Positions 1 through 34,173 of a stretch of DNA of 35,535 nucleotides are shown here, in pieces. Origin of the DNA: a virus (Duplodnaviria; Heunggongvirae; Uroviricota; Caudoviricetes); IMG/VR virus record IMGVR_UViG_2718218136_000003; one strand, written 5' to 3'. A program made the translations under genes and the position numbers. Below the pieces are notes generated by a model, which saw nothing but the letters and a program-made list of their open reading frames with translations, ran no database searches and was not told the DNA's origin. Positions within the stretch are counted from its first letter, which is position 1, and each line of letters starts with the position of its first letter.

Positions 1-900
1 TTAACGCAATAATGGACAATCTGGTGGTAATCGACAACGCAACGCCGCCGGAAGTATTTCAATATGAAAGTTTTGTCCGCTCAACGGTTCGCCATCAAGA
101 TTAAAAGTGATTTCGTGTGGGGCTTGTATATCAAACCACGACGAAGCGCCTTCGATAATATTCGGGTTATCTTCGTCAGATTTTAAGGTTGATACGAGAG
201 CCGGAAGAATTTCATCGCCGGTAAAAATGCGCAGTTGCAGCAAGCCATCGTTAATTAACGCGTTCGGACACAATTGCTGACCGCCACCGGCCTGACGCCC
301 GTTACCAATACCAATGACCAGGGCGTCACCTTGCCAGTGAAAGTTTTCACCGCGGATTTCACAACGGTCCGGTTGCAGAGTATCCATGCGCATTAAGCCA
401 TGAATGATGTAAGAGACGCCACCCAGCGCGGCTTTTAATTTTTCCGGCGTTTCTGTGGTAATACGCGTCCCAAATCCGCCTGTCGCCATATTAATAAAAC
501 AGGTTTGTTTGTTGACCTGCGCCATATCTATCGCAATGGCGTTACCGGCAATTGCCAGTTTCAGCGCCTTATCCAGTGCCTCAGGAATCCCTACACTGGT
601 GGCAAAATCATTGGCGGTTCCTAATGGCAAAATTCCCAGCGCGGGTATGTCATCCCCCTCACACTGAATCAACGCCGTAGAAACTTCATTAATGGTGCCA
701 TCGCCACCACCGGCAATCACCGTTGCGACGCCCAACTTCCGGGCCTCCTCTACATATCGTGCGGCATCGCCTTTCTCCCAGGTGACCCGCACATGGATCG
801 TCATTCCTTCCTCACGCAACAGCATAATTGCTTCGCGCAAGGGTAGATTGTCAGTACTTTTGCCATTAAGAATCAGTAAGCTGGCGGGAAATTCTGCCAT
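1..900 (-). CDS. yegS: Lipid kinase YegS (DAG-kinase catalytic-domain family), complete 299 aa
   Basis: Full-length ORF with ATG at 898-900 and TAA at 1-3 on minus strand; translation carries the GGDGT nucleotide-binding motif typical of DAGK_cat/YegS kinases; synteny with yegR and yegQ. Confidence 0.88.
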
Positions 901-1314
901 GATCGTATGTGCCTTTATGATTGGTCTGTAGATAGTGTAGAGCAGAAAACAAAAGGTGGAGTCAGAACAGGATGAAAGTCGGAGGATAAAAAGTCAGTTC
1001 AAGTATGGAGGATTCAGTGGTTACCACCAGGAGCTTGCAATGGGGACAGCGAATACTAACGGCTGCCACCGATAAATTTCAAAAAAGAGCATATGCCTAA
1101 TATTCAACCAAACAGTGGCATCTTAAATATACTATTCCAAATATATTAAAGCCCCCATGGAGTTACCCTGAAGGGCCTCAATGTCCGTAATTCCTACTTA
1201 TGTAGGAAATGTTGTACAGAACATTTATTATAATCCTATTCAATTATAATAATCATGCCATTATTATATTTAAACACTAGAGAGTGTCGTTGGTATTTAA
1301 TGGGGGAAGGTGAG

Positions 1315-1632
1315 ATGAAAAAGATAGCTGCTATATCATTAATTAGTATTTTTATTATGTCTGGTTGTGCTGTGCATAATGATGAGACAAGTATCGGTAA
1401 ATTTGGTCTTGCATATAAAAGTAATATTCAGCGTAAACTCGATAACCAATACTACACCGAAGCCGAAGCTTCTTTAGCCAGGGGCAGAATATCTGGTGCA
1501 GAAAATATAGTAAAAAATGATGCAGCCCATTTCTGTGTTACTCAGGGCAAAAAAATGCAGATAGTTGACCTGAAGACAGAAGGTGCAGGATTACATGGCG
1601 TCGCTCGTCTGACATTCAAATGTGGAGAGTGA
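1315..1632 (+). CDS. yegR: Small lipoprotein (signal peptide with lipobox-like SGC), 105 aa; positionally equivalent to E. coli yegR
   Basis: ORF 1255-1632 trimmed to internal ATG at 1315 preceded by GGGGGAAGGTGAG Shine-Dalgarno-like sequence; N-terminus MKKIAAISLISIFIMSGCA is a lipoprotein signal. Confidence 0.6.
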   Translation: MKKIAAISLISIFIMSGCAVHNDETSIGKFGLAYKSNIQRKLDNQYYTEAEASLARGRISGAENIVKNDAAHFCVTQGKKMQIVDLKTEGAGLHGVARLTFKCGE

Positions 1633-1694
1633 GAATATTTTTTGGTAAGCGTCAAACATGCGCGTTCTGGTTGTGCTTAGCCGGAACCTGTGCG

Positions 1695-1727
1695 AGCACG
1701 ATGCCGTTACGTGAAAGGCATCGTGCT
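1695..1727 (+). terminator. Perfect 11-bp inverted repeat (AGCACGATGCC / GGCATCGTGCT) with 11-nt loop downstream of yegR; candidate transcription terminator, no clear U-tract
   Basis: Inverted repeat read directly from the sequence about 60 nt after the yegR stop codon. Confidence 0.35.
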
Positions 1728-1789
1728 ATGAAGGGAGATTCTATCGATGTGGTCAATGGAAGACGGTGACCAGGGATAGGGCTTATGCA

Positions 1790-1817
1790 TAAAAAATAAG
1801 CCCGTGTAAGGGAGATT
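1790..1817. repeat. attL core: TAAAAAATAAGCCCGTGTAAGGGAGATT, identical to attR core
   Basis: Exact 28-nt match to 34002-34029; sequences diverge immediately on both sides. Confidence 0.85.
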
Positions 1818-1896
1818 TAGGGTGTCACCAGTAGGGGCTTTCAACGGTACAATGCGGGTTTGAGCGGCATAAATTACCACTGAAAGCCCTTAAACG

Positions 1897-2910
1897 TTAC
1901 TCTACTGTGGACACTGTGTGGACACTCTCGGCTTCAGTACCACCTCTTAGCGGATTAAGAGAAATGGCGTCCTGAAGGTACTCTGGCGCAAAATGAGCGT
2001 AAACCATAGTTTGCTCAATCCGCGTGTGACCTAGTATCCGTTGTAGCGTGATAATACTTCCTCCATTAATCATGAAATGAGTGGCAAAGCTGTGCCTTAG
2101 TGCATGTGTGGCTTGCCCCGTTGGCAAATCCGGTTTTATTGCTTTCATTGTTCGTCTGAAGCGAGGGTAATCAGCATCAGGGAATAAAAAACCTCGTTTG
2201 TTATCCGCGATCATTTTGGCAACAGCCTCTGAGATCGGGACGGTGCGTGGTTTGTTTGTTTTCGTTTTAACAAACGTGACGCGGTTATGGATGATATTTT
2301 CTGCTTTCAAACGAGCTGCTTCTCCCCAACGTGCTCCTGTACTCAGGCAAAGAATCGCAATCTTTTTATTGTCGCCGTCAAGTGCTGCAAGCAGTAAGGC
2401 AATTTCTTCCTGTGTGAGATAGCCTGTTTCTGGTTTTTCCTCCTTAAGCCTCTTTGTCCCTCTGATAGGGTGCTCACCAAAGAATAACTCCGCTTCAATC
2501 AGGGCTGTAAACATGCCGCTAATACATGTTAAATCACGATTGATACTCGAAGGTTTAATACCCTGACTTCTTCGGGTGGCGCAGTACTGGCTGATAAGGG
2601 ATTTCGTGATTTGAAATGCGCATGGGTCATTCGTTATTTTTGTGAAGATTTCAATTTTTCCAAGATTAGATTTCCCATGCTCTTCGTGTTTACCCTTTAA
2701 ATCCCACCAGATCTGTGTCAGTTCCGACAGACGTCGTTTGTCTGTTGGTTTTGATAGCCATTCTTTATTGTGGTGGTTGTACAACGTGTATTTTTCGAAA
2801 GCGACAGCTTCGCTTTTCTTATCAAACTTCCTACGGATGCGTTTTCCGTTACGTCCAGTAGGGCGGATGTCCACTTCATATCGACCATCATCGAGTTTTT
2901 TGATTGCCAT
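1897..2910 (-). CDS. int: P2-type tyrosine integrase, 337 aa
   Basis: Translation has the tyrosine recombinase C-terminal catalytic region (…ATHALRHSFATHFMINGGSIITLQRILGHTRIEQTMVYAHF…); same length as P2 Int; located next to attL and downstream of the C repressor on the same strand. Confidence 0.92.
   Translation of the reverse strand: MAIKKLDDGRYEVDIRPTGRNGKRIRRKFDKKSEAVAFEKYTLYNHHNKEWLSKPTDKRRLSELTQIWWDLKGKHEEHGKSNLGKIEIFTKITNDPCAFQITKSLISQYCATRRSQGIKPSSINRDLTCISGMFTALIEAELFFGEHPIRGTKRLKEEKPETGYLTQEEIALLLAALDGDNKKIAILCLSTGARWGEAARLKAENIIHNRVTFVKTKTNKPRTVPISEAVAKMIADNKRGFLFPDADYPRFRRTMKAIKPDLPTGQATHALRHSFATHFMINGGSIITLQRILGHTRIEQTMVYAHFAPEYLQDAISLNPLRGGTEAESVHTVSTVE
1906..1925. promoter_or_regulatory. 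Two direct TGTGGACAC repeats spaced 11 bp apart in the int-proximal (P') arm; candidate Int arm-type binding sites
   Basis: Direct repeat at 1906-1914 and 1917-1925, overlapping the 3' end of int; related copies TGTGGTCA / TGTGGACG with the same 11-bp spacing occur in the ogr-proximal arm at 33944-33962. Confidence 0.5.
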
Positions 2911-3025
2911 CAGAAAACCCTCCGAGTGGTACTTTTTTTTGCTACTACTAATCGCTTTTTTCGTGGTGGCTGAAATTTAGCCACCAATAGTAGGCACTTG
3001 TGATGAATATATTCACGATAAATTG

Positions 3026-3325
3026 TTAACCAGTCTTTTGACCGGAGTGGGGCGACGTTGTTTCGTTTTGCCCAAAGTGTGCGAGAGCGGGCGCAATTTG
3101 CCCGGCTTCTGGAGCTACCTGATCAGTCATGAACCACAAAGTATATTTAGTAAATCTGGGATGTTGTAAGACCTTCATTATGGCTTCAACTCCAGCGTTT
3201 TTTGACCGGCTCTCATAGCTCGAAAGTGAGCTGTAGGCTACACCAGTTAATTCACTGAATTCTTTACGGTTTAACCTTTCAGATTCACGGATTAGCTTCA
3301 ACTTCTCCGAAACGTCTATTGACAT
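3026..3325 (-). CDS. C: Immunity repressor C (P2-type), 99 aa
   Basis: ORF 3026-3397 trimmed to ATG at 3323-3325; C-terminal half (…FTKYTLWFMTDQVAPEAGQIAPALAHFGQNETTSPHSGQKTG) matches my recollection of P2 C; divergent from cox. Confidence 0.85.
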   Translation of the reverse strand: MSIDVSEKLKLIRESERLNRKEFSELTGVAYSSLSSYESRSKNAGVEAIMKVLQHPRFTKYTLWFMTDQVAPEAGQIAPALAHFGQNETTSPHSGQKTG

Positions 3326-3446
3326 AATTACTCCGATTGCGTAATTTCTTGCTGATAGTGTGAAATGTTGCGCTTCTGGAGTTATCCTTTTAGGCAATAA
3401 TTAGCCATTAGGAGCCATTAGAAGCACTAAGGGAGAATCGTAGCAG
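3326..3446. promoter_or_regulatory. C/cox lysis-lysogeny switch region holding divergent promoters (Pc leftward, Pe rightward); contains direct repeat AGCCATTAG x2 at 3403-3411 and 3413-3421 as candidate operator
   Basis: 121-bp intergenic region between divergent C and cox starts; 9-bp direct repeat separated by 1 nt seen in sequence; role as C operator is inferred. Confidence 0.5.
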
Positions 3447-3722
3447 ATGAATAGACAGCTTGTAAGCGTGACTGATGCCGTGCCTTATCAGGAGTTTGCA
3501 AAACTCATTGGTAAAACTCCAAGAGCTGTAAGGGGCATGATTGAGAAAGGGAAATTACCAGTTATTGAGATTACTGACCCTCAGTCAGTATCGGGGCGTG
3601 CTGGTGAATATTGGGTATACCTTCCGGCATGGAATAACGGACTAAAACTGGCTTATGAAAGCCGTCCTAAAGAGATTCGTGACGGCTGGTTGATGTGGTT
3701 AGGTCTCGGTGAACCACGTTAA
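3447..3722 (+). CDS. cox: Cox (excisionase / Pc repressor, P2-type), 91 aa
   Basis: 91-aa ORF divergent from C, same length and position as P2 Cox. Confidence 0.85.
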   Translation: MNRQLVSVTDAVPYQEFAKLIGKTPRAVRGMIEKGKLPVIEITDPQSVSGRAGEYWVYLPAWNNGLKLAYESRPKEIRDGWLMWLGLGEPR

Positions 3723-3732
3723 GGAGAACCGT

Positions 3733-3903
3733 ATGAATGAGCCTCGTTGTATTGCTCAGTTATTGCGTAACGAAAGCCCCAGGGCGATTGACTTCACCAT
3801 CACCCACGGGAAGGGACGCAAGGGAATCATTATCCGCACCAAAAAACAGAGTCCGTTAAAGAAGGCTCTGACCTTTCTGAAAAGCCGGAGGGGCTGGAAA
3901 TGA
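3733..3903 (+). CDS. Small early protein (P2 orf78 position), 56 aa
   Basis: ORF trimmed to ATG at 3733 with AAGGAG Shine-Dalgarno 6 nt upstream; overlaps the start of B (ATGA). Confidence 0.5.
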   Translation: MNEPRCIAQLLRNESPRAIDFTITHGKGRKGIIIRTKKQSPLKKALTFLKSRRGWK

Positions 3904-4400
3904 CAGTGATGACGCTCAATCTCGTTGAAAAACAGCCAGCAACTATGCGCCGGATAATTGGTAAGCATCTTGCCGTTCCTCGCTGGCAGGAGACATGTGA
4001 TTATTATAATCAGATGATGGAGCGCGAACGGCTAACAGTTTGCTTTCATGCGCAGTTAAAACAACGTCACGCAACGATGCGTTTTGAAGAAATGAACGAC
4101 GTCGAACGTGAACGGCTGGTTTGTGCAATTGATGAATTGCGTGGGGCATTCTCAAAACGCCGTCAGGTCGGTGCAAGTGAGTATGCATATATTAGCTTTT
4201 TAACTGTCAGTCAGCGCCGCACTTTATTTATGCACGCACGACTGACAGAAAAAGAATTTAACCAGCCATACTGGCGAATTAATGAAGAATCATGTTACTG
4301 GCGTGAAGCTTTATTCCGTGCATTACGTGAATTATTCAGTCTGTTTGAGTATGCACCGACAATTCTGACATCGGTAAAACCAGAGCAATATCTGCATTAA
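3900..4400 (+). CDS. B: Replication protein B (helicase loader), 166 aa
   Basis: 166-aa ORF, same size and position as P2 B in the early operon. Confidence 0.85.
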   Translation: MTVMTLNLVEKQPATMRRIIGKHLAVPRWQETCDYYNQMMERERLTVCFHAQLKQRHATMRFEEMNDVERERLVCAIDELRGAFSKRRQVGASEYAYISFLTVSQRRTLFMHARLTEKEFNQPYWRINEESCYWREALFRALRELFSLFEYAPTILTSVKPEQYLH

Positions 4401-4463
4401 GTAATTAACCAGAGTTTTTAACGCACTTAATTGTGCGGGGCTTCTTTTTGCCTGGAGAAAGTC

Positions 4464-4688
4464 ATGCATACAGTTTCTGAAAATCAGTGCGGTAAATACG
4501 CATTACTGCTGCAACAGGCCAGAACCGAAGCACAGGCCGACGCAGCGACGCGCTTTTCTTCTCATCTTGACGCCATGATTCGCCATATCACAAAGGCGGA
4601 GTTATCCCGCGTGGAGATAGTCGAGCTGCTCAGTCAGGAGTCGGAAAAATTTCACAATATCGGATTGTCTCGCGGGGAGGTGCTTTGA
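4464..4688 (+). CDS. Early protein (P2 orf80 position), 74 aa
   Basis: ORF 4431-4688 trimmed to ATG at 4464 preceded by GGAGAAAG; stop overlaps the next gene. Confidence 0.6.
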
Positions 4689-4990
4689 TGTCCTGTTCTC
4701 ATTCAGTTGTATTACTGAACAATGCCTTAAAAATCGCCGTTATGAAAAATGGCGATTTGTCTCTTATTCAACTTGGTCTTGATAAAGAAAAACGCGAAAT
4801 AACTGAATCTGTTATCGCGATTTATCAGAACGAATTAAACCTCCTGTCTGATGTGGTCAATTTACTTGTTAAACGCGCTGTATTTCATAAGCAAATCTCC
4901 TCCGTGGATGAACTGACGAAATTAACGACAGAAATCGCCAGCTATTGCGCTGATGAATTTAAGAAGCTGAACGACAAAAGGAGCTGGTAA
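4688..4990 (+). CDS. Early protein (P2 orf81 position), 100 aa
   Basis: ATG at 4688 overlapping the upstream TGA; translationally coupled early-operon ORF. Confidence 0.6.
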   Translation: MSCSHSVVLLNNALKIAVMKNGDLSLIQLGLDKEKREITESVIAIYQNELNLLSDVVNLLVKRAVFHKQISSVDELTKLTTEIASYCADEFKKLNDKRSW

Positions 4991-5214
4991 TGCCGGACAA
5001 CGTGGATTTTATTCAGGAACAGCAGGCTGAATTACTGGAGCGCCAGATTAACGCGGCAAGGGTAAAACATTGCGGTGCTTCTGCGCTGGTTTGTGAAGAG
5101 TGTGACGTGCCAATATCTGCTGCCCGTCGTGCGGCTTATCCGTCAGCCACGCGTTGTGTTTCCTGTCAGTCAGTCTTTGAAGCAAAAAACAAACATTACC
5201 GGAGAATGGCATGA
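4990..5214 (+). CDS. DksA/TraR-type C4 zinc-finger protein (P2 orf82 position), 74 aa
   Basis: Translation contains CGASALVCEECDVPI…CVSC, four Cys in a CxxC-N17-CxxC arrangement typical of TraR/DksA zinc fingers. Confidence 0.7.
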   Translation: MPDNVDFIQEQQAELLERQINAARVKHCGASALVCEECDVPISAARRAAYPSATRCVSCQSVFEAKNKHYRRMA

Positions 5215-5486
5215 GCATTCGTATAGAAATTGGCGAACGTTATGTCGTTACCAGTGACAGCTTTCAGTTTATTCTCCATGAGAAAAAGAGAGCGGAAAGC
5301 GGTAAAAACGCCGGTCAGGAGTGGCTGGCGGTGGTTGGTTATTACCCGAAATTAAGCCAGCTCGTTTCCGGCCTGATGCATCACGATATTCTGACCGGAA
5401 GCGCAAAGTCTTTTGCTGATTTAAACGCGCAGGTTGAGCAACTCAGCAAGCGTTGTTCAGAGGCTTTTGGCTCATATGGCCATTAA
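5211..5486 (+). CDS. Early protein (P2 orf83 position), 91 aa
   Basis: 91-aa ORF; its stop overlaps the start of A. Confidence 0.6.
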   Translation: MSIRIEIGERYVVTSDSFQFILHEKKRAESGKNAGQEWLAVVGYYPKLSQLVSGLMHHDILTGSAKSFADLNAQVEQLSKRCSEAFGSYGH

Positions 5487-7761
5487 AGCCTCCGGGCGTT
5501 TTGTCCCTCCGTCAGCATTTGCTGCAGGCACCGGTAAGACGTTTACCGGTGCTTATGCATGGAGCGCGCCACGCGAGGCTGTCGGGCGCGAAAGACCCCT
5601 TACACGTGACGAGATGCGTCAGGTGCAAGGTGTTTTATCCACGATTAACCGCCTGCCTTACTTTTTGCGTTCGCTGTTTACTTCACGCTATGACTACATC
5701 CGGCGCAATAAAAGCCCGGTGCACGGGTTTTATTTCCTCACATCCACTTTTCAGCGCCGTTTATGGCCGCGCATTGAGCGTGTGAATCAGCGCCATGAAA
5801 TGAACACCGACGCGTCGTTACTGTTTCTGGCAGAGCGTGACCACTATGCGCGCCTGCCGGGAATGAATGACAAGGAGCTGAAAAAGTTTGCTGCCCGTAT
5901 CTCATCGCAGCTTTTCATGATGTATGAGGAACTCAGCGATGCCTGGGTGGATGCGCATGGCGAAAAAGAATCGCTGTTTACGGATGAGGCGCAGGCTCAC
6001 CTCTATGGTCATGTTGCTGGCGCTGCACGTGCTTTCAATATATCCCCTCTCTACTGGAAAAAATACCGTAAAGGGCAGATGACCACGAGGCAGGCATATT
6101 CTGCCATTGCCCGTCTGTTTAACGATGAGTGGTGGACTCATCAGCTTAAAGGCCAGCGTATGCGCTGGCATGAGGCGTTACTGATTGCTGTCGGGGAGGT
6201 CAATAAAGACCGTTCTCCTTATGCCAGTAAACATGCCATTCGTGATGTGCGTGCACGCCGCCAGGCAAATCTGGAATTTCTTAAATCGTGTGATCTCGAA
6301 AACAGGGAAACCGGCGAGCGCATCGACCTTATCAGTAAGGTGATGGGCAGTATTTCTAATCCTGAAATTCGCCGGATGGAGCTGATGAACACCATTGCCG
6401 GTATTGAGCGTTACGCCGCAGCAGAGGGTGATGTGGGGATGTTTATCACGCTGACCGCGCCGTCAAAGTATCACCCGACACGTCAGGTCAGAAAAGGCGA
6501 AAGTAAAACCGTCCAGCTAAATCACGGCTGGAACGATGAGGCATTTAATCCAAAGGATGCGCAGCGTTATCTCTGCCGTATCTGGAGCCTGATGCGCACG
6601 GCATTCAAGGATAATGATTTACAGGTCTACGGTTTGCGTGTCGTCGAGCCACACCACGACGGAACGCCGCACTGGCATATGATGCTTTTTTGTAATCCGC
6701 GCCAGCGTAACCAGATTATCGAAATCATGCGTCGCTATGCGCTCAAAGAGGATGGCGACGAAAGAGGAGCCGCGCGAAACCGTTTTCAGGCAAAACACCT
6801 TAATCGGGGCGGTGCTGCGGGGTATATCGCGAAATACATCTCAAAAAACATCGACGGCTATGCACTGGATGGTCAGCTCGATAACGATACCGGCAGACCT
6901 CTGAAAGATACTGCCGCGGCTGTTACTGCATGGGCGTCAACGTGGCGCATCCCGCAATTTAAAACGGTTGGTCTGCCGACAATGGGGGCTTACCGTGAAC
7001 TACGCAAATTGCCGCGCGGTGTCAGCATTGCTGATGAGTTTGACGAGCGCGTCGAGGCTGCACGCGCCGCCGCAGACAGTGGTGATTTTGCGTTGTATAT
7101 CAGCGCGCAGGGTGGGGCAAATGTCCCGCGCGATTGTCAGACTGTCAGGGTCGCCCGTAGCCCGTCGGATGACGTTAACGAGTACGAGGAAGAGGTCGAG
7201 AGAGTGGTCGGCATTTACGCGCCGCATCTCGGCGCGCGTCATATTCATATCACCAGAACGACGGACTGGCGCATTGTGCCGAAAGCTCCGGTCGTTGAGC
7301 CTTTGACTTTAAAAAGCGGCATCGCCGCGCCTCGGAGTCCTGTCAATAACTGTGGAAAGCTCACCGGTGGTGATACTTCGTTACCGGCTCCCACACCTTC
7401 TGAGCACGCCGCAGCAGTGCTAAATCTGGTTGATGACGGTGTTATCGAATGGAATGACCCGGAGGTTGTGAGGACGCTCAGGGGTGCATTAAAACACGGC
7501 CTGAAAACACCAAATCGTCAGCAAAGAAACGGAAGCCCGTTAAAACCACATGAAATAACACCGTCGGCCAGACTGACCCGGTCGGAACGATTGCAAATTA
7601 CCCGTATCCGCGTTGACCTCGCTCAGAACGGTATCAGGCCGCAACGATGGGAGCTTGAGGCGCTGGCGCGTGGCGCGACAGTAAATTATGACGGGAAAAA
7701 ATTCACGTATCCGGTCGCTGATGAGTGGTCGGGATTCTCAACAGTAATGGAGTGGACATGA
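5476..7761 (+). CDS. A: Replication initiation protein A (rolling-circle nicking protein), 761 aa
   Basis: ORF 5434-7761 trimmed to ATG at 5476, giving 761 aa as in P2 A; contains the HUH-type motif region (…PHHDGTPHWHMMLF…) and the YxxK-like region (AGYIAKYISK). Confidence 0.9.
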   Translation: MAIKASGRFVPPSAFAAGTGKTFTGAYAWSAPREAVGRERPLTRDEMRQVQGVLSTINRLPYFLRSLFTSRYDYIRRNKSPVHGFYFLTSTFQRRLWPRIERVNQRHEMNTDASLLFLAERDHYARLPGMNDKELKKFAARISSQLFMMYEELSDAWVDAHGEKESLFTDEAQAHLYGHVAGAARAFNISPLYWKKYRKGQMTTRQAYSAIARLFNDEWWTHQLKGQRMRWHEALLIAVGEVNKDRSPYASKHAIRDVRARRQANLEFLKSCDLENRETGERIDLISKVMGSISNPEIRRMELMNTIAGIERYAAAEGDVGMFITLTAPSKYHPTRQVRKGESKTVQLNHGWNDEAFNPKDAQRYLCRIWSLMRTAFKDNDLQVYGLRVVEPHHDGTPHWHMMLFCNPRQRNQIIEIMRRYALKEDGDERGAARNRFQAKHLNRGGAAGYIAKYISKNIDGYALDGQLDNDTGRPLKDTAAAVTAWASTWRIPQFKTVGLPTMGAYRELRKLPRGVSIADEFDERVEAARAAADSGDFALYISAQGGANVPRDCQTVRVARSPSDDVNEYEEEVERVVGIYAPHLGARHIHITRTTDWRIVPKAPVVEPLTLKSGIAAPRSPVNNCGKLTGGDTSLPAPTPSEHAAAVLNLVDDGVIEWNDPEVVRTLRGALKHGLKTPNRQQRNGSPLKPHEITPSARLTRSERLQITRIRVDLAQNGIRPQRWELEALARGATVNYDGKKFTYPVADEWSGFSTVMEWT

Positions 7762-8213
7762 TGGCAAAAATTCACGAGGTAAAGCTGCACGCAAAATATT
7801 TCGACCTTGTGCTGGAAGGAAAGAAACGCGCAGAGTTTCGGAAAAATGACCGTAATTATGAGCGCGGGGACACGTTGATTTTGCATGAATGGGGGCAGGG
7901 TGTGTATACGGGGCGAAAGGTTGAAGCCCGGATAACAGATGTTACTGACCTGTCAGACTGGCTGGAAGATTATGTCTTGCTAAGTATTGAGCTGCTTAAT
8001 ACAGGCGCATATGAGATTGTGAACTGGAAAGAACTTAGTGAGCGTGGTCTGTTATTCAGAATTAATCATGAAATTATGCATAAGCTCGGCCTTGCTGTTA
8101 TGTATGAACCAGAGACGGGAATGTCTGGCGGGGCAATGGTTGCCACGGATGGAGCATGGAACTATTCAGATGAACAGATGGAGCGTGCACAGCAAAACGG
8201 GTGGCTTGGATAA
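7758..8213 (+). CDS. ASCH/PUA-like (DUF3850-type) protein (P2 orf91 position), about 151 aa
   Basis: ATG at 7758 overlapping the A stop; N-terminal region (KIHEVKLHAKYFDLVLEGKKRAEFRKNDRNYERGDTLILHEW) resembles ASCH-domain proteins as I recall them. Confidence 0.65.
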   Translation: MMAKIHEVKLHAKYFDLVLEGKKRAEFRKNDRNYERGDTLILHEWGQGVYTGRKVEARITDVTDLSDWLEDYVLLSIELLNTGAYEIVNWKELSERGLLFRINHEIMHKLGLAVMYEPETGMSGGAMVATDGAWNYSDEQMERAQQNGWLG

Positions 8214-8419
8214 TGCACAGAATACCAGGCGAGATACCGCACCATAAAACTAAAAATATCAAGCTGATGGCTATTGTTCAGCGTTTACAGCGGATTATGG
8301 TCAACGAAAATCTGACGCCCGATGAGCTAGTCGGGTGTGCCGAAATAGTCCGGGATAATTACGGGCGGTTTAACTATATCGGTCAGTCCAGAGTTGCGCC
8401 ACCACCACGCAGACGATAG
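8213..8419 (+). CDS. Hypothetical small protein, 68 aa, translationally coupled to orf91 (TAATG overlap)
   Basis: ORF 8201-8419 trimmed to ATG at 8213; no recognisable domain; may be an ORF-finder artefact. Confidence 0.35.
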   Translation: MHRIPGEIPHHKTKNIKLMAIVQRLQRIMVNENLTPDELVGCAEIVRDNYGRFNYIGQSRVAPPPRRR

Positions 8420-8421
8420 AT

Positions 8422-8464
8422 AACGCCGCCAGTCGTGAAACTTGTTTTCAGGGCTGGCGGCGTT
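8422..8464 (+). other. Perfect 11-bp inverted repeat (AACGCCGCCAG / CTGGCGGCGTT) with 21-nt loop directly after the 8419 stop; candidate RNA stem-loop or terminator without U-tract
   Basis: Inverted repeat read from sequence. Confidence 0.4.
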
Positions 8465-8490
8465 GAACAACGAGTGAAGCGAGGCGTTAG
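8431..8490 (+). repeat. Copy A of a ~60-bp imperfect direct repeat (about 75% identical to copy B) upstream of cargo gene 1
   Basis: Manual alignment to 9401-9460 gives 45 of 60 matching positions, with long conserved blocks (TGAAACTTG, TGGCGG, GTTGA, GTTAG). Confidence 0.6.
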
Positions 8491-8648
8491 TTGACATTCA
8501 TATTTTTACTGCGTTGGTGCTGTTTTTTGACGGTTGAAAGGAGTTATCTCGGAGAGCTAAAGCTAACAACTTACAAATATTCAAAAGTAAGCTTCCTGTT
8601 GCTAACATAAGGTCGATTTTTTATGTGGATGATGCAAAAAGGATAGCT

Positions 8649-9380
8649 ATGGATACTATAATCGCTTTTCTATCACTCGCTTTTTTTGTTGCTTTTTTCA
8701 TCGGGTTAATCAAGCCATCACTGGTGCGAATGCCAAGCCGCAAACGTGCAAGTGCGGTTTATCTCGGAGGAGGTTTTGTATTGAGCATAATTGGTTCAAT
8801 ACTCTATCCAACAGAAAAAAGCCAGCCAGTTGCTAAAACTGAAACATCAACCGTTGTAGAACACCAAGTCCAAAAAACATTCGAATATGGTGAAAAAACA
8901 CTCAAGGAATATCGGAGCGAGCCAAAGAAAACTCGACACGATATTGTGAATAGTTACATTGACTTTAAGAAAGTTCCAGTCACCGCATCAGATGCATTTT
9001 ATGCCTGCATGAGTGAGTATACATTTACCAAAGATGATGAGTTGAAACTCGGTGATGTTCTTGGGTGGTGCTTTAATGATTATGAAAATGACCCGAGTTC
9101 ACTAAATAATAAAATCAATCTTGATACATTTCAGAGTAATTTTAGTGGTTGGGATGGTTCTTATCGTCCATTGGAAAAACTAATTAAAGATAATATGAAC
9201 GATGATTCATCTTATAAACATGTATCAACGGTATATCATTTAGTTTTGAATAAAGACCCGCACGCCATTGTGAAAACGACGTTTCGCGGCACTAATGCTT
9301 ATGGTGGCATGGTCAAACAGACTGTAGCAGCGCGAGTTGACGTGCGAACGGGTGAGATCGATTCAATACTCGACAATTAA
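8649..9380 (+). CDS. Uncharacterised membrane-anchored protein, 243 aa: two predicted N-terminal TM helices plus ~170-aa soluble domain; cargo in the tin/old slot
   Basis: ORF 8625-9380 trimmed to ATG at 8649 with AAGGA Shine-Dalgarno 6 nt upstream; hydrophobic stretches IIAFLSLAFFVAFFIGLI and AVYLGGGFVLSIIGSILY; AT-rich codon usage unlike the phage backbone. Confidence 0.6.
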   Translation: MDTIIAFLSLAFFVAFFIGLIKPSLVRMPSRKRASAVYLGGGFVLSIIGSILYPTEKSQPVAKTETSTVVEHQVQKTFEYGEKTLKEYRSEPKKTRHDIVNSYIDFKKVPVTASDAFYACMSEYTFTKDDELKLGDVLGWCFNDYENDPSSLNNKINLDTFQSNFSGWDGSYRPLEKLIKDNMNDDSSYKHVSTVYHLVLNKDPHAIVKTTFRGTNAYGGMVKQTVAARVDVRTGEIDSILDN

Positions 9381-9400
9381 ATAATATAGTGACAGCTCCG

Positions 9401-9460
9401 TCAGTGATGAAACTTGCTTTTAGTCTTGGCGGGGTTGAGCAATGAGTCTTGCAAGGTGTT
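9401..9460 (+). repeat. Copy B of the ~60-bp imperfect direct repeat, running into the ribosome-binding site and start codon of cargo gene 2
   Basis: Manual alignment to 8431-8490; copy B ends GTTAGC immediately before ATG 9464. Confidence 0.6.
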
Positions 9461-9463
9461 AGC

Positions 9464-10120
9464 ATGCGTAGAATGGAAGCTGCTTGGACGTGGGGTATTC
9501 ATATGAATTTAAAAATTTTCGGCATAATTGTCCTTTCTGCTTTGATGTTCGTTTTAGGTTTTTTTCTCGGTGGTTTTAATTGGGAATGGGCTGATAAGAA
9601 TTATGCAGGTGAGGTGGCGTTGTGGAGTATGTTAGGAGGGTGGTTATCCGCAATTGCAACTCTGTTTGCCGTGTTGGTTTCATTATATATGGCGTATCAA
9701 GCTACTCAGAATGAGATTGAAAAAATCAGGGTTACTCATGGAGTAAGTATGAGTGTCACTCATGACAATGAGTTAAGTTGTAATCTCATTATTCAGAACT
9801 TGAGAAATATGAAAGTGAATATTACTGGTGTTTTTTTGTCTCTAGGTAAATCATCAGGTAAGTACTCTTTGGATAAAGTAATTGACAATCGTAATATAAC
9901 GCTTTCATATAAAGGTGAAACAGAAAAGGTACAATTTGTAATCCATTCTGGGTATATTTGGTGGTCAATGTATAAATTATTCGATATGGATAAGAACATA
10001 GGTTTTGAAAAGGGTAAGATCTTGATAACAACCAACCTCAATACATATGAATTTGATTTGCCAAAAGAATATTTAAGAGCTTTTGAGAAAGCTTATTCGG
10101 AGTATCAGACAAAAAAATAA
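9464..10120 (+). CDS. Uncharacterised membrane-anchored protein, 218 aa: two predicted N-terminal TM helices plus ~150-aa soluble domain; cargo in the tin/old slot
   Basis: ORF 9449-10120 trimmed to ATG at 9464 with AAGGTG 5 nt upstream; hydrophobic stretches IFGIIVLSALMFVLGFFLGGF and WSMLGGWLSAIATLFAVLVSLYMAY; AT-rich. Confidence 0.6.
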   Translation: MRRMEAAWTWGIHMNLKIFGIIVLSALMFVLGFFLGGFNWEWADKNYAGEVALWSMLGGWLSAIATLFAVLVSLYMAYQATQNEIEKIRVTHGVSMSVTHDNELSCNLIIQNLRNMKVNITGVFLSLGKSSGKYSLDKVIDNRNITLSYKGETEKVQFVIHSGYIWWSMYKLFDMDKNIGFEKGKILITTNLNTYEFDLPKEYLRAFEKAYSEYQTKK

Positions 10121-10249
10121 TGAGCTGCATGCAAAAGGTGCATGTTTTTGCATGTGCTAAGTTCACTGGTTTTGTGTATATCGCTTCAGATCTAGCGTGG
10201 TTCCGGGGAGGGCATGCAACTGCATTAAAACCGCTCCATGAAGCGGGCG

Positions 10250-10268
10250 GGCGAGGCGGGGAAAGCAC
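10250..10268. other. cos site: 19-nt cohesive-end sequence GGCGAGGCGGGGAAAGCAC
   Basis: Exact string found about 170 bp beyond the Q stop codon, at the position of cos in P2; matches the P2 cohesive-end sequence as I recall it. Confidence 0.7.
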
Positions 10269-10437
10269 TGCGCGCTGGCGGTGGTGCTGATTTTATTTTT
10301 TCAGCGTCTGAGCGCGTCGTGATGGCGTTTAGATTGTTCGCCGGGGCGTTGGTGTGTCTGCGGGATGTTTTGTACGGTGGTGAGCGTGTGAGGGCGTGAT
10401 GACAGGGTGTAAAAAAGCCGCCCGCAGGCGGCGATGT

Positions 10438-11472
10438 TCAGCCGTTGTCAGTGTCCAGTGAGTAGTTTTTAAAGCGGATGACCTCCTGACCGAGCCAGCC
10501 GTTTATCTCGCGGATCCTGTCCTGTAACGGGATAAGCTCATTGCGGACAAAGACCTTTGCCACTTTCTCAATATCACCCAGCGACCCGACGTTCTCCGGC
10601 TTGCCGCCCATCAACTGAAAGGGGATGCGGTGCGCGTCCAGCAGGTCAGCGGCGCTGGCTTTTTTGATATTAAAAAAATCGTCCTTCGTCGCCACTTCAC
10701 TGAGGGGGATAATTTTAATGCCGTCGGCTTTCCCCTGCGGGGCATAGAGAAACAGATTTTTAAAGTTATTGCGGCCTTTCGACTTAACCATGTTTTCGCG
10801 AAGCATTTCGATATCGTTGCGATCCTGCACGGCATCGGTGACGTACATGATGTATCCGGCATGTGCGCCGTTTTCGTAATACTTGCGGCGGAACAGCGTG
10901 GCCGACTCATTCAGCCAGGCAGAGTTAAGGGCGCTGAGATATTCCGGCAGGCCGTACAGCTCCTGATTAATATCGGGCTCCAGCAGGTGAAACACGGAGC
11001 CGGGCGCGAAGGCTGTCGGCTCGTTGAAGGACGGCACCCACCAGTAAACATCCTCTTCCACGCCACGACGGGTATATTTTGCCGGTGAGGTTTCCAGTCT
11101 GATGACCTTACCGGTGGTGCTGTAGCGCTTTTCCAGAAACGCATTACCGAACACCAGAAAATCCAGCACAAAGCGGCTGAAATCCTGCTGGGAAAGCCAC
11201 GGGTGCGGGATAAACGTTGAAGCCAGAATATTACGTTTGACGTAAATCGGTGAGCTGTGATGCACGGCAGCACGCAGACTTTTTGCCAGACCGGTAAAGC
11301 TGACCGGCGGCTCATACCATCTGCCGTTACTGATGCATTCGACGTAATCCAGAATGTCACGGCGGTCGAGTACCGGCACCGGCTCGCCAAAGGTGAATGC
11401 CTCCATTTTCGGGGCGATGGCGGTCATGGTTTTTGCCGCAGGTTGCGGTGTTTTCCCTTTTTTCTTGCTCAT
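10438..11472 (-). CDS. Q: Portal protein Q, 344 aa
   Basis: 344-aa ORF on the minus strand in the P2 Q position, same length as P2 Q. Confidence 0.9.
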   Translation of the reverse strand: MSKKKGKTPQPAAKTMTAIAPKMEAFTFGEPVPVLDRRDILDYVECISNGRWYEPPVSFTGLAKSLRAAVHHSSPIYVKRNILASTFIPHPWLSQQDFSRFVLDFLVFGNAFLEKRYSTTGKVIRLETSPAKYTRRGVEEDVYWWVPSFNEPTAFAPGSVFHLLEPDINQELYGLPEYLSALNSAWLNESATLFRRKYYENGAHAGYIMYVTDAVQDRNDIEMLRENMVKSKGRNNFKNLFLYAPQGKADGIKIIPLSEVATKDDFFNIKKASAADLLDAHRIPFQLMGGKPENVGSLGDIEKVAKVFVRNELIPLQDRIREINGWLGQEVIRFKNYSLDTDNG

Positions 11473-13244
11473 CAGTAAAACTCCAGAATGGTGGATGTCA
11501 GCGGGGTGCTGATACCGGCGGTGAGTGGCTCATTTAACAGAGCGTGCATGGTCGCCCAGGCGAGGTCGGCGTGGCTGGCTTCCTCGCTGCGGCTGGCCTC
11601 ATAGGTGGCGCTGCGTCCGCTGCTGGTCATGGTCTTGCGGATAGCCATAAACGAGCTGGTGATGTCGGTGGCGCTGACGTCATATTCCAGACAGCCTCGG
11701 CGGATAACGTCTTTTGCCTTGAGCACCATTGAGGTTTTCATTTCCGGCGTGTAGCGGATATCGCGCGCGGCGGGATAGAACGAGCGCACGAGCTGGAACA
11801 CGCCGACACCGAGGCCGGTGGCATCAATCCCGATGTATTCAACGTTATATTTTTCGGTGAGTTTGCGGATGGATTCCGCCTGGGTGGCAAAGTCCATGCC
11901 TTTCCACTGGTGACGCTCAAGTATTCTGAATTTGCCACCGGCCACCACCGGCGGTGCCAGCACCACGCATCCGGCGCTGTCGCCACGGTGTGACGGGTCG
12001 TAACCAATCCAGACCGGGCGGGAGCCGAACGGATTGGCGGCAAAGGGTGCATAGTCTTCCCATTCTTCCAGCGTGTCGACCATGCAGCGTTGCAGCTCCT
12101 CGAACGGGAACACCGATGCCTTGTCGTCAACAAATTCACACATGAACAGGTTTTTAAAATCGTCGGCGCTGTTTTCGCGTTTGAGCTGCTCAATGTCGAA
12201 CAGCGTGCAGCCGCCTTTCAGGGCGTCCTCAATGGTGACAATCTGCCGCCACTGGCCGTCCGCACAGAGAAGCCCACCGGCAAGGGCGTTATGACTGACG
12301 TCGATTTCCACGCGTTCGGCGGCGCTGGCGCGTCCCCGGTTGAACAGTTCACCCGACCAGAACGGGTAGGCGTCGTGCGCCAGCGTGGACGGGGTGGAGA
12401 AATAGGTCGAGCGCAGGTGACTCTGTGAGGCCATACCTGATGCCACCTTACGCAGTACCTGAAAATTCGGGATCCAGAAAATCTCGTCGACGTACAGGTC
12501 GCCGTTATGGCTCTGCGCGGTGTTGGAGTTGGTGCCGAGAAAAATCAGTTTTGCGCCGTTATTGCCCAGGACAATCGGGTCACCGGTCAGGTCAACGTCA
12601 ACCAGACGGGCAAAGGCGATGATGTATTCGCGGAACACATACGCCTGCGTTTTACTGGCCGACAGAAAAATCTGGTTATGACCGGTTTTCAGGGCGCGCA
12701 GCAGCGCCTCGCGGGAAAAATAAAACGTCGCGCCAATCTGACGGGATTTCAGGATATCGCGGATGCGGTGCTCAAGCCCGGCGCGATACCAGTGCAACTG
12801 ATAGTCGAAAGACTGCTCAAAGAAAATCTGCTCCAGCTTTTCGATGGCTTCGTCGCTGAAAAAATTCTTTTTCGGTTTGCGCCGCCCGCCTTTGTTGCGG
12901 TTAGCGACGTTCGGATTAAGGTCTGCCTCGTTGCCGGTCTGACTGTAACGGTTTACCCGTGCCAGTCGTTCAATCTGGCGTCCGAGCAGGTCAATTTCCT
13001 TGAAGTCACCGCCGGTTTTCTGCGGTTTGATGATGAGCTGGGTCAGCCGCGCTTCCAGACTCATTTCGACACGGCTGATGGGAGCAACGCTGTCCCAGCC
13101 GTCGCGCTGTTTCCAGCTCTGCACCGTCGGGCGTTTCATCTGCAACATGGCGGCAATCTGCGGCACGGAAAACCCCTGCCAGTACAGCAGCGCCGCCTGA
13201 CGACGCGGGTCGTGTAAAAGAGTGGTGTCTGTGGTGATGGTCAT
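11472..13244 (-). CDS. P: Terminase large subunit (ATPase) P, 590 aa
   Basis: ORF 11472-13274 trimmed to the second Met (MTITTDTTLL), giving the P2 P length; upstream of Q on the same strand. Confidence 0.88.
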   Translation of the reverse strand: MTITTDTTLLHDPRRQAALLYWQGFSVPQIAAMLQMKRPTVQSWKQRDGWDSVAPISRVEMSLEARLTQLIIKPQKTGGDFKEIDLLGRQIERLARVNRYSQTGNEADLNPNVANRNKGGRRKPKKNFFSDEAIEKLEQIFFEQSFDYQLHWYRAGLEHRIRDILKSRQIGATFYFSREALLRALKTGHNQIFLSASKTQAYVFREYIIAFARLVDVDLTGDPIVLGNNGAKLIFLGTNSNTAQSHNGDLYVDEIFWIPNFQVLRKVASGMASQSHLRSTYFSTPSTLAHDAYPFWSGELFNRGRASAAERVEIDVSHNALAGGLLCADGQWRQIVTIEDALKGGCTLFDIEQLKRENSADDFKNLFMCEFVDDKASVFPFEELQRCMVDTLEEWEDYAPFAANPFGSRPVWIGYDPSHRGDSAGCVVLAPPVVAGGKFRILERHQWKGMDFATQAESIRKLTEKYNVEYIGIDATGLGVGVFQLVRSFYPAARDIRYTPEMKTSMVLKAKDVIRRGCLEYDVSATDITSSFMAIRKTMTSSGRSATYEASRSEEASHADLAWATMHALLNEPLTAGISTPLTSTILEFY

Positions 13245-13417
13245 GAATACCTCGCCGTGATGAATACACGGCAAGGCTACTGAGTCGCGCCCCGCGATTC
13301 GCTAAGGTGCTGTTGTGCCAGTGATAAGCCATCCGGGACTGATGGCGGAGGATGCGCATCGTCGGGAAACTGATGCCGACATGTGACTCCTCTAATCACT
13401 ATTCAGGACTCCTGACA
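13245..13417. promoter_or_regulatory. Divergent late promoter region between P and O; contains TGTTGTGCCAGTGATAAGCCA (13311-13331), candidate Ogr-dependent upstream element
   Basis: Intergenic region between divergent late operons; TGTTGT motif also found upstream of V and FI. Confidence 0.45.
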
Positions 13418-34001: not shown

Positions 34002-34029
34002 TAAAAAATAAGCCCGTGTAAGGGAGATT
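34002..34029. repeat. attR core: TAAAAAATAAGCCCGTGTAAGGGAGATT, identical to attL core
   Basis: Exact 28-nt match to 1790-1817; overlaps the 3' terminator of cyaR. Confidence 0.85.
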
Positions 34030-34089
34030 ACACAGGCTAAGGAGGTGGTTCCTGGTACAGCTAGCATTTTATGGGTTATGTTTTTCAGC
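34003..34089 (-). ncRNA. cyaR: CyaR (RyeE) Hfq-dependent sRNA, about 87 nt
   Basis: Minus-strand sequence GCTGAAAAACATAACCCATAAAATGCTAGCTGTACCAGGAACCACCTCCTTAGCCTGTGTAATCTCCCTTACACGGGCTTATTTTTT matches CyaR as I recall it; ends in a terminator hairpin plus U-tract; lies between ogr and yegQ as in E. coli. Confidence 0.8.
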
Positions 34090-34173
34090 GAAACGGATGA
34101 TAACCTTAATAAATGCAGCTGTATGTGATCGGTTTCTAAGAATTTTCCATCCGGGAAAAATAATCGAAATTAA

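Follow-up and report, generated by a model that had tools for sequence, protein, structure and literature searches.

The 35,535-nucleotide (nt) stretch of viral DNA analyzed here (IMG/VR record IMGVR_UViG_2718218136_000003, called the window below) is a P2-like (Peduovirus) prophage. Between its gene A and its cos site lies a small open reading frame (ORF) for a protein of 68 amino acids (aa), and this ORF is directly followed by a stem-loop. As judged from sequence comparison, the 68-aa ORF is a genuine conserved gene. The stem-loop belongs to a structured element of about 75 nt, which is designated EL here. The small ORF and EL constitute a portable accessory module on the backbone side of the variable cargo DNA, whose border is EL itself. 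In P2-like phages, the interval between gpA and gpQ, which corresponds to the tin/old slot of P2, is a model defense hotspot (Rousset 2022, PMC9122126). An earlier note on this DNA had asked whether the small ORF is a real gene and whether it belongs to the phage backbone or to the cargo. The first question is answered with yes in the next section. The second offered too simple a choice: the small ORF with its EL is portable, is found in two contexts, and lies next to the cargo border, on the side of the backbone.

Coding Status of the 68-aa ORF

The 68-aa gene occupies positions 8213–8419 on the plus strand and ends with a TAG stop codon. Its start codon (ATG, 8213–8215) overlaps the stop codon (TAA, 8211–8213) of the upstream gene, which encodes a 151-aa protein with an ASCH-like domain, and this TAATG overlap is present as the earlier note described it. 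The protein matches phrog_11386 with an E-value of 4.9e-39, residues 1–68 being aligned to positions 1–69 of the 69-position profile. The search recovered 179 homologues from Escherichia, Salmonella, Citrobacter, Klebsiella, and Buttiauxella, and translated homologues with an intact frame extend down to 45% identity in Rosenbergiella. The residues M19, Q26, M29, E32-N33-L34, P36, E38-L39-V40, C42, and V46-R47-D48-N49 are invariant, and the core motif of the family is NENLTPxELVGCAxIVRDNY. The C-terminal tail is basic, proline-rich, and variable; its insertions and deletions are multiples of three nt, and it ends with PPRRR.

The pattern of substitution is that of a protein-coding gene. Among 28 distinct DNA sequences (233 pairs), the median ratio of nonsynonymous to synonymous substitution rates (dN/dS) is 0.14, and the variable columns number 37, 29, and 59 of 64 at codon positions 1, 2, and 3, respectively. 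The 68-aa frame is open in 28 of the 28 sequences, and both other plus-strand frames are closed in all of them; on the antisense strand just one frame is open, in two sequences. The AlphaFold2 model is a two-helix hairpin with helices at residues 10–31 and 36–59 and a core pLDDT above 90. Neither Foldseek comparison of the model with PDB and BFVD nor a profile search against PDB sequences revealed an analogue. A comparison of four proteins of this locus with PADLOC and NCBIfam gave no meaningful match.

The simplest alternative is that the small ORF is open merely by chance and that the hairpin is either a usual terminator or a palindrome without significance. The ORF belongs to no Pfam or NCBIfam family, and it is left out of several annotations: it is omitted from the PGAP-style annotations of the phages S164, P22H4, and P24A7b, the last of which has an antisense ORF instead. 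The dN/dS ratio, the conservation of the frame, and the 179 homologues contradict this explanation for the ORF, while the strong covariation of the hairpin and the lack of a U-tract, both described below, contradict it for the stem-loop. It is regarded as refuted, with hardly any probability left to it.

The gene is one that annotation routinely misses or displaces by a spurious antisense ORF. The antisense ORF of P24A7b (L005, NC_049390) is 99 aa long, lies at 3386–3685, and covers both the small ORF and EL. Under a different form, N-terminally truncated versions of the 68-aa protein (P0079 and P0088; E. coli H117 and H122) bear the NCBI name "meiotically up-regulated 80 protein". This label is evidently a naming artefact that has been propagated among the annotations of Enterobacteriaceae.

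The earlier note held that absence of the ORF or disruption of its frame in close relatives would speak against a gene. Both were found in part of the relatives, yet the gene stands. P2 and L-413C are without the ORF, which is due to mosaic replacement. In Wphi the frame is broken, and positions 3585–3905 of its record (L001, AY135739) contain seven single-base insertions within about 320 nt relative to three close relatives. The insertions divide the ASCH gene into two annotated pieces, gp91 and gp92, and disrupt the frame of the small ORF. Because each of them repeats the neighboring base and the record is old, the frame breaks in Wphi are most likely errors in the 2003 sequence.

Structure of the EL Element

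The window contains exactly two EL copies according to the covariance model built from the alignment described below. Copy 1 (EL1) lies at 8414–8493 on the plus strand (85.7 bits, E = 4e-22). Copy 2 (EL2), a diverged direct repeat with 74% identity to copy 1, lies at 9386–9465 on the same strand (62.4 bits, E = 1.1e-15); in the repeat comparison it extends over 9391–9462. The earlier note had described a perfect stem-loop after the small ORF. The hairpin was confirmed and its outer 11 base pairs (bp) are indeed perfect, but it is not a simple stem-loop; it is the first half of a conserved two-hairpin element, which the window contains twice.

The first hairpin, HP1, spans 8422–8464 (AAC...GTT), starts 2 nt past the stop codon of the 68-aa gene, and is followed by one unpaired G. 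Its outer 11 bp are formed by AACGCCGCCAG and CTGGCGGCGTT, and its 19-nt arms are 89% complementary overall. The minimum free energy is -37.6 kcal/mol, and the centroid structure has -32.5 kcal/mol. Compared with dinucleotide shuffles, the fold has a z-score of -3.5, and one of 200 shuffles folds as well. The second hairpin, HP2, forms the tail of the element at 8466–8488 (AACAACGAG-N5-CGAGGCGTT), and EL ends with GTTAG at 8486–8490. The tail consensus AACAACGAG-N5-CGAGGCGUU-AG is about 30 nt long and could fold into a short hairpin that includes tandem G.A pairs; it is nearly invariant, although part of this invariance is imposed by the search pattern, and independently found copies vary more.

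Covariation was examined in an alignment of 46 diverse EL copies. HP1 consists of about 17–19 bp, and 12 of 16 pairs are changed on both sides. In the alignment, 94% of the cells are paired, versus 24–44% when the partners are slid, and the observed covariation score was reached by none of 500 shuffles. G-U or U-G pairs number 70, versus seven A-C or C-A pairs; this excess indicates that the fold is selected on the plus strand. The triplets AAC...GTT close HP1 in 45–46 of the 46 sequences, and they close HP2 as well. In internal copies, CGAGC-N3-GCGAG of HP2 is swapped to CUCGC-ACC-GCGAG. Support for the second helix comes from copies that were found without the search pattern, in which Watson-Crick pairs take the place of the G.A pairs. 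Its strong covariation makes EL well suited to be proposed as a new family of RNA (or single-stranded DNA).

The DNA 3' of the small ORF is more conserved across genera than the ORF itself. A coding tail or a read-through of the stop codon was considered for the tail and rejected: none of the three codon positions varies in the tail, whereas its offset from the upstream stop codon does. A U-tract after the hairpin is absent; GAACAACGAG is found there instead, the same holds in all of the 46 aligned copies, and the terminator scan was silent. Rfam 15 includes nothing that overlaps EL (scan of the region at E ≤ 10, and of the whole window at the gathering score). The proteins of the locus belong to known, uncharacterized families, while EL is absent from Rfam.

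Distribution of EL and Its Position Relative to Gene A

An exact-pattern scan of IMG/VR for the EL tail recovered at least 120 loci, and blastn revealed EL in 78 phage records, among them those of 186, PSP3, Wphi, and Erwinia EtG. EL is present in 514 of 5426 complete E. coli genomes with one or two copies each, and it is therefore not a genome-wide repeat of the REP, BIME, or ERIC type. The element is confined to the A-cos interval of P2/186-like phages. Of the fetched loci, 108 hold gene A, and all 108 have EL downstream of this gene and in the same orientation. The distance from the stop codon of A to EL is 211–2314 nt (median 763), and 317–3944 nt of variable DNA separate EL from the stop codon of Q.

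The constant orientation on the gene A/ori strand, only downstream of A, and the strand-specific fold with its excess of G-U over A-C pairs would also be expected of a lagging-strand origin (ssi/sso). In that case EL would work on the plus strand displaced by rolling-circle replication after the nick by gpA, 1–3 kb downstream, and would recruit host priming or helicase loading. The P2-type ori GCGCCTCGGAGTCCTGTCAA lies inside gene A on the plus strand at 7327–7346 (exact 20-mer match, 0 expected by chance). In the P2 record, the nick site is annotated at 29892, within the ori 20-mer, and the equivalent position here is about 7334. The nick site carries no complement flag in the records of P2 and 186, although the P2 record does flag other features of the minus strand. 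The invariance of the tail across genera would fit recognition by a conserved host factor. The ssoA origins of rolling-circle plasmids are exchangeable hairpin cassettes flanked by recombination sites. However, P2 itself, which serves as the reference for this mode of replication, replicates without EL, and the strand nicked by gpA and the direction of the fork were not found in the accessible literature. Inspection by eye revealed neither a primase CTG start triplet of the G4 type in the tail consensus nor a loop similar to CS-6 of ssoA. That EL lies close against stop and start codons and that its tail provides a ribosome-binding site points to RNA instead, and an origin of this kind is considered unlikely.

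Three other DNA sites were considered and rejected. EL as a pseudo-cos was suggested by GCGAGGCG, which the tail shares with the cos end, yet the tail is unchanged in 186-type phages, whose cos is GGCGTGGCG. For a second nick site of gpA, the minus strand of EL has CGCCTCG as in ori, but the cut would miss the junction after GTTAG. No likeness to Xer sites (dif/cer) or to the P2 attP core was seen by eye.

Genes Upstream of EL

The upstream ORF ends 0–5 nt before HP1 in most of 133 loci. EL thus follows the 3' ends of no fewer than five small genes that are unrelated to one another. These ORFs include a DinI-like family of 77 aa (75 loci), the 68-aa family (27 loci), Orf97 (nine loci), and three further clusters of small ORFs; a Tum homologue is upstream of EL in some loci with two copies. 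Each HP1 variant travels with its upstream gene, and the tail alone is common to all. In phage 186, EL is located between orf97 and the terminator t95b.

The location of EL upstream of the cargo and of terminators such as t95b raises the possibility of a processive antitermination signal, either an RNA similar to put of HK022, in which one base lies between two hairpins, or an ops-like DNA that recruits RfaH, for reading into the AT-rich foreign cargo. The two hairpins one unpaired G apart are compatible with the former. For the latter, the end of the tail, GGCGTTAG, matches the ops core GGCGGTAG at seven of eight positions (ops taken from PMC5995543). In ops, GGCGGTAGnnTG, RfaH reads G5 and T6, the substitution G5A abolishes recruitment, and pausing requires T11 and G12 (PMC5995543). 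In EL, position 5 is a T and the bases past GTTAG are unconserved, so the defining features of ops are lacking. EL has no sequence similarity to any Rfam family, and read-through of t95b in 186 would cross cos into antisense Q with no obvious benefit. Antitermination is considered very unlikely.

Junctions Downstream of EL and the Portable Module

Downstream similarity between loci ends within 0–2 nt of GTTAG. Among 147 EL instances, 21 left-flank families and 52 right-flank families occur in 71 combinations. One left-flank family has 26 right partners, and 12 right-flank families have at least two left partners. The window shows the same edge: Megablast homology to phages whose cargo differs, such as Wphi, P2 OU784549, YpM_50, and YpM_46, ends at 8490–8492, the end of EL1. 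A forward ORF starts 0–9 nt past GTTAG in about one quarter of the loci, with GAGG of the tail at the Shine-Dalgarno distance. In nine loci, TAA inside CTAAC of EL is the stop codon of long reverse ORFs.

The small ORF with EL is considered a portable module because it is found in two contexts. One is that of the window, where it is fused to the ASCH gene. In the other, it follows DinI or Tum with their own EL: 11 loci of 186-like phages have the order A - DinI/Tum - EL - small ORF - EL - cargo - Q. In the 186-like loci, a leader of about 120 nt with its own GAGGG Shine-Dalgarno sequence precedes the small ORF.

Such an arrangement resembles gene cassettes, and EL could be a site for site-specific recombination similar to the integron attC, where the gene and EL would be moved as a cassette at the GTTAG end of the folded strand. 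EL is found 3' of several unrelated genes, the small-ORF module is bracketed by two ELs, 52 right flanks abut within 0–2 nt of GTTAG, and AAC...GTT closes both hairpins. AAC and GTT triplets are conserved in attC, with the core consensus RYYYAAC / GTTRRRY. This consensus is not matched by EL, whose left side is GATAAC, GCGAAC, or AGAAAC and whose bases past GTTAG are free. An integrase-sized ORF at 1897–2910 is read as the P2-type int by position; no second recombinase was seen in positions 1–5600 of the window, the only part scanned for it. Moreover, HP1 goes with the upstream gene and only the tail is shared, a pattern that is predicted by homologous exchange within the tail. The attC-like site is therefore rated as quite improbable.

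Beyond EL1, a 17-mer at 8511–8527 (GCGTTGGTGCTGTTTTT) has a marginal resemblance to positions 10278–10294 to the right of cos (GCGGTGGTGCTGATTTT); two of 500 shuffles scored as high.

Proposed Function of the Small Protein and EL

The whole package preferred here comprises a coding gene, a structured EL, a function of EL as RNA in cis, and a role of EL as a linker. It is judged slightly more probable than its opposite; the descriptive part is solid, while the chances of the functional part are about even.

Translational coupling would lead to synthesis of the small protein early in lytic growth, at the end of the early operon. The protein may modulate a host or competitor function, like its neighbors DinI and Tum. 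EL would function in cis at the RNA level: a stable structure at the 3' end or between cistrons would terminate the backbone message or insulate it, by way of processing or of protection from 3' exonucleases. GAGG of EL would give a ribosome-binding site to a gene joined 2–5 nt downstream. The invariant 30-nt tail may be a homology patch, or linker, for reassorting left and right modules, because it is the only sequence common to otherwise unrelated modules. As such a linker, EL would be the left border of a defense/cargo hotspot.

Several observations weigh against this scheme. EL is dispensable, since P2 and L-413C are without it. The EL of a Buttiauxella locus (L012) is internally deleted, with AAACCCCGCCAG joined to GCGTTAG, and in an Entomohabitans locus (L014) without EL, a canonical t95b-like terminator follows the small ORF. 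Despite its G+C-rich hairpin, EL is not a canonical (intrinsic) terminator, as the U-tract is missing. The strand-specific G-U pairing from which a function as RNA is suggested would look alike if it were G.T pairing in single-stranded DNA. EL is found only between A and cos and not at the other P2 hotspots in the window, where a generic module for mRNA 3' ends would also be expected; this favors a function tied to position, such as replication or packaging. The exact GTTAG junctions can also arise by trimming to a selected boundary and are no proof of recombination inside EL. The invariance of the tail is in part a product of the search pattern. The role of the small protein is a guess from its neighbors, because no analogue in fold or sequence was found.

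A more specific proposal is that EL is a previously undescribed cis element specific to the A-cos interval, which combines a selected strand-specific fold with an invariant 30-nt adaptor. The adaptor would connect any incoming gene to phage expression, with a ribosome-binding site and control of the RNA end, and would also be the recombination joint at which defense and cargo modules are exchanged. It is put forward tentatively, with a chance clearly short of even. If true, the EL adaptor would supply the mechanism that is still lacking for the fast exchange of genes at a well-known phage defense hotspot. Being at the left border of variable DNA and common to phages with unrelated neighbors, EL is a testable candidate for the flanking homology of this hotspot, and it is a practical landmark for delimiting cargo.

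The title of Nilsson et al. 2004 invokes site-specific recombination at this locus. The tail sequence was seen in none of the searched paper texts; this paper and Odegrip 2006 were outside the search and may already describe a conserved sequence here. The papers on the hotspot (PMC9122126, PMC13586616, and bioRxiv 2024.10.15.618418) do not mention a hairpin or stem-loop.

The ASCH/DUF3850-DUF7415 Protein

The gene upstream of the 68-aa gene lies at 7758–8213 on the plus strand and encodes a 151-aa protein of the orf91 family. Its ATG (7758–7760) overlaps the TGA of gpA (7759–7761), and gpA, the 151-aa ORF, and the 68-aa ORF are thereby chained by two overlaps of stop and start codons, ATGA and TAATG.

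The N-terminal region was described as ASCH-like in the earlier note, and this is confirmed: residues 5–77 include significant matches to DUF3850 (PF12961; E = 5.5e-18, 65.4 bits, gathering cut-off 22.9) and ASCH (PF04266; E = 4.3e-11, 43.9 bits, gathering cut-off 21.2), and residues 4–79 match the solved chain 3IUW_A in PDB by sequence homology (E = 4.5e-13). What had been overlooked is a second domain, DUF7415 (PF24187), at residues 87–129 (E = 2.5e-13, 50.4 bits, gathering cut-off 27). This region also matches the stand-alone PHROGs 3954 and 2502, while the protein as a whole matches phrog_1812 with an E-value of 1.5e-81. In phage S164, the annotation of this gene reads DUF3850 protein, and the label "RNA-binding" derives from the superfamily (phrog_986). 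The protein is a modular member of a known family within the ASCH-PUA superfamily, with putative RNA or modified-nucleotide binding, and its gene should be annotated as encoding a two-domain protein.

P2 Orf91 has the same position and the same ATGA coupling to gene A, and its N-terminal 75 aa are 96% identical. Unlike the protein here, it is without DUF7415, and at the DNA level the similarity to P2 ends at the boundary between the domains (7981). Both domains are present in L-413C, which is without the 68-aa ORF.

The ASCH protein was considered as a binder of EL and rejected: 52 of 79 EL loci are without an ASCH gene adjoining A, and P2 has an ASCH protein without EL. In three 186-like prophages (L068, L082, and L131), an ASCH-domain gene is directly upstream of gene A, where it replaces orf84 of 186, a PAPS-reductase-like gene. 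These proteins are 42–43% identical to the N-terminal domain here. ASCH genes are found on either side of gene A, depending on the lineage.

Cargo Genes

Two genes on the plus strand follow EL1. Cargo gene 1 (8649–9380) encodes a 243-aa homologue of phage 186 Orf97, with 78% identity over 243 aa and a match to phrog_3403 (E = 7e-144). According to the 186 record, expression of Orf97 from a plasmid blocks 186 infection. EL2 adjoins the 3' end of this gene, and orf97 of 186 is likewise followed by EL. Cargo gene 2 (9464–10120) matches phrog_16957 (E = 2e-94) and probably starts at ATG 9464, 9473, or 9503. AAGG of the EL2 tail and GTTAG (9458–9462) are just before ATG 9464 (AAGG-N6-ATG). A homologue of cargo gene 2 with 27% identity is found at the same position after Orf97 and EL in another locus (L138). 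The products of both genes have hydrophobic N-terminal stretches that resemble membrane helices, and neither has a match in PADLOC. The pair is a candidate for a two-gene exclusion system.

Genomic Setting

Escherichia phage S164 is 99.9% identical across the studied region. Upstream, ORFs were assigned by position and length to int, C, cox, B, the orf80-83 group, and gene A of P2, which their sizes and order fit, and the studied region is the 3' end of a P2-type early (replication) operon. On the right, the cargo slot is limited by the cohesive-end sequence GGCGAGGCGGGGAAAGCAC at 10250–10268 on the plus strand, which was read directly from the sequence and which we take to be the P2 cos sequence. 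Q (portal, 10438–11472 on the minus strand from the ORF list) and P (terminase) are on the opposite strand at 10438–13274.

Terminator-like hairpins with T-runs are found on both sides of cos, at 10127–10145 (plus strand) past cargo gene 2 and at 10417–10432 (minus strand) past the stop codon of Q, and they fit closed convergent transcription units. A small RNA gene, CyaR/RyeE (Rfam RF00112, 100.7 bits), is located at 34006–34091 on the minus strand and abuts the right end of the prophage; cyaR is an integration region of the P2 family.

Comparison with Known Systems

The 68-aa protein was already represented by PHROG 11386, which it matches over the full length. The additions made here are the evidence for selection, the two-helix model, and the fixed association with EL in two contexts.

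EL resembles ssoA/RSB and the ssi of phiX174 and G4 (concept in PMC5714925) in being an orientation-specific, non-coding, exchangeable, and dispensable hairpin on a replicon with an HUH nickase. It differs from them in that it is without their consensus motifs and is tightly tied to translation signals.

The RNase III processing hairpins of T7 early mRNA and lambda sib are similar hairpins of about 20 bp between cistrons or at the 3' end of an early transcript without a U-tract; they have no counterpart of the invariant 30-nt tail of EL.

Integron cassettes share with EL a strand-specific imperfect hairpin 3' of unrelated genes, a variable sequence with conserved structure, and a precise junction. 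In contrast to attC, EL includes another hairpin, whose sequence is conserved, and it is present in one or two copies and not in an array. Its exchange fits homologous recombination in the tail.

Module linkers and morons of lambdoid phages are reportedly treated in the modular theory of Susskind and Botstein, by Juhala et al. 2000, and by Clark et al. 2001. EL is similar to them as a short conserved joint between exchangeable modules, and the morons are likewise accessory genes bounded by a stem-loop. Unlike these joints, EL extends over about 75 nt with structural covariation and has no U-tract of the kind seen in moron terminators. The structural covariation argues for selection for the fold, and not for homology alone.

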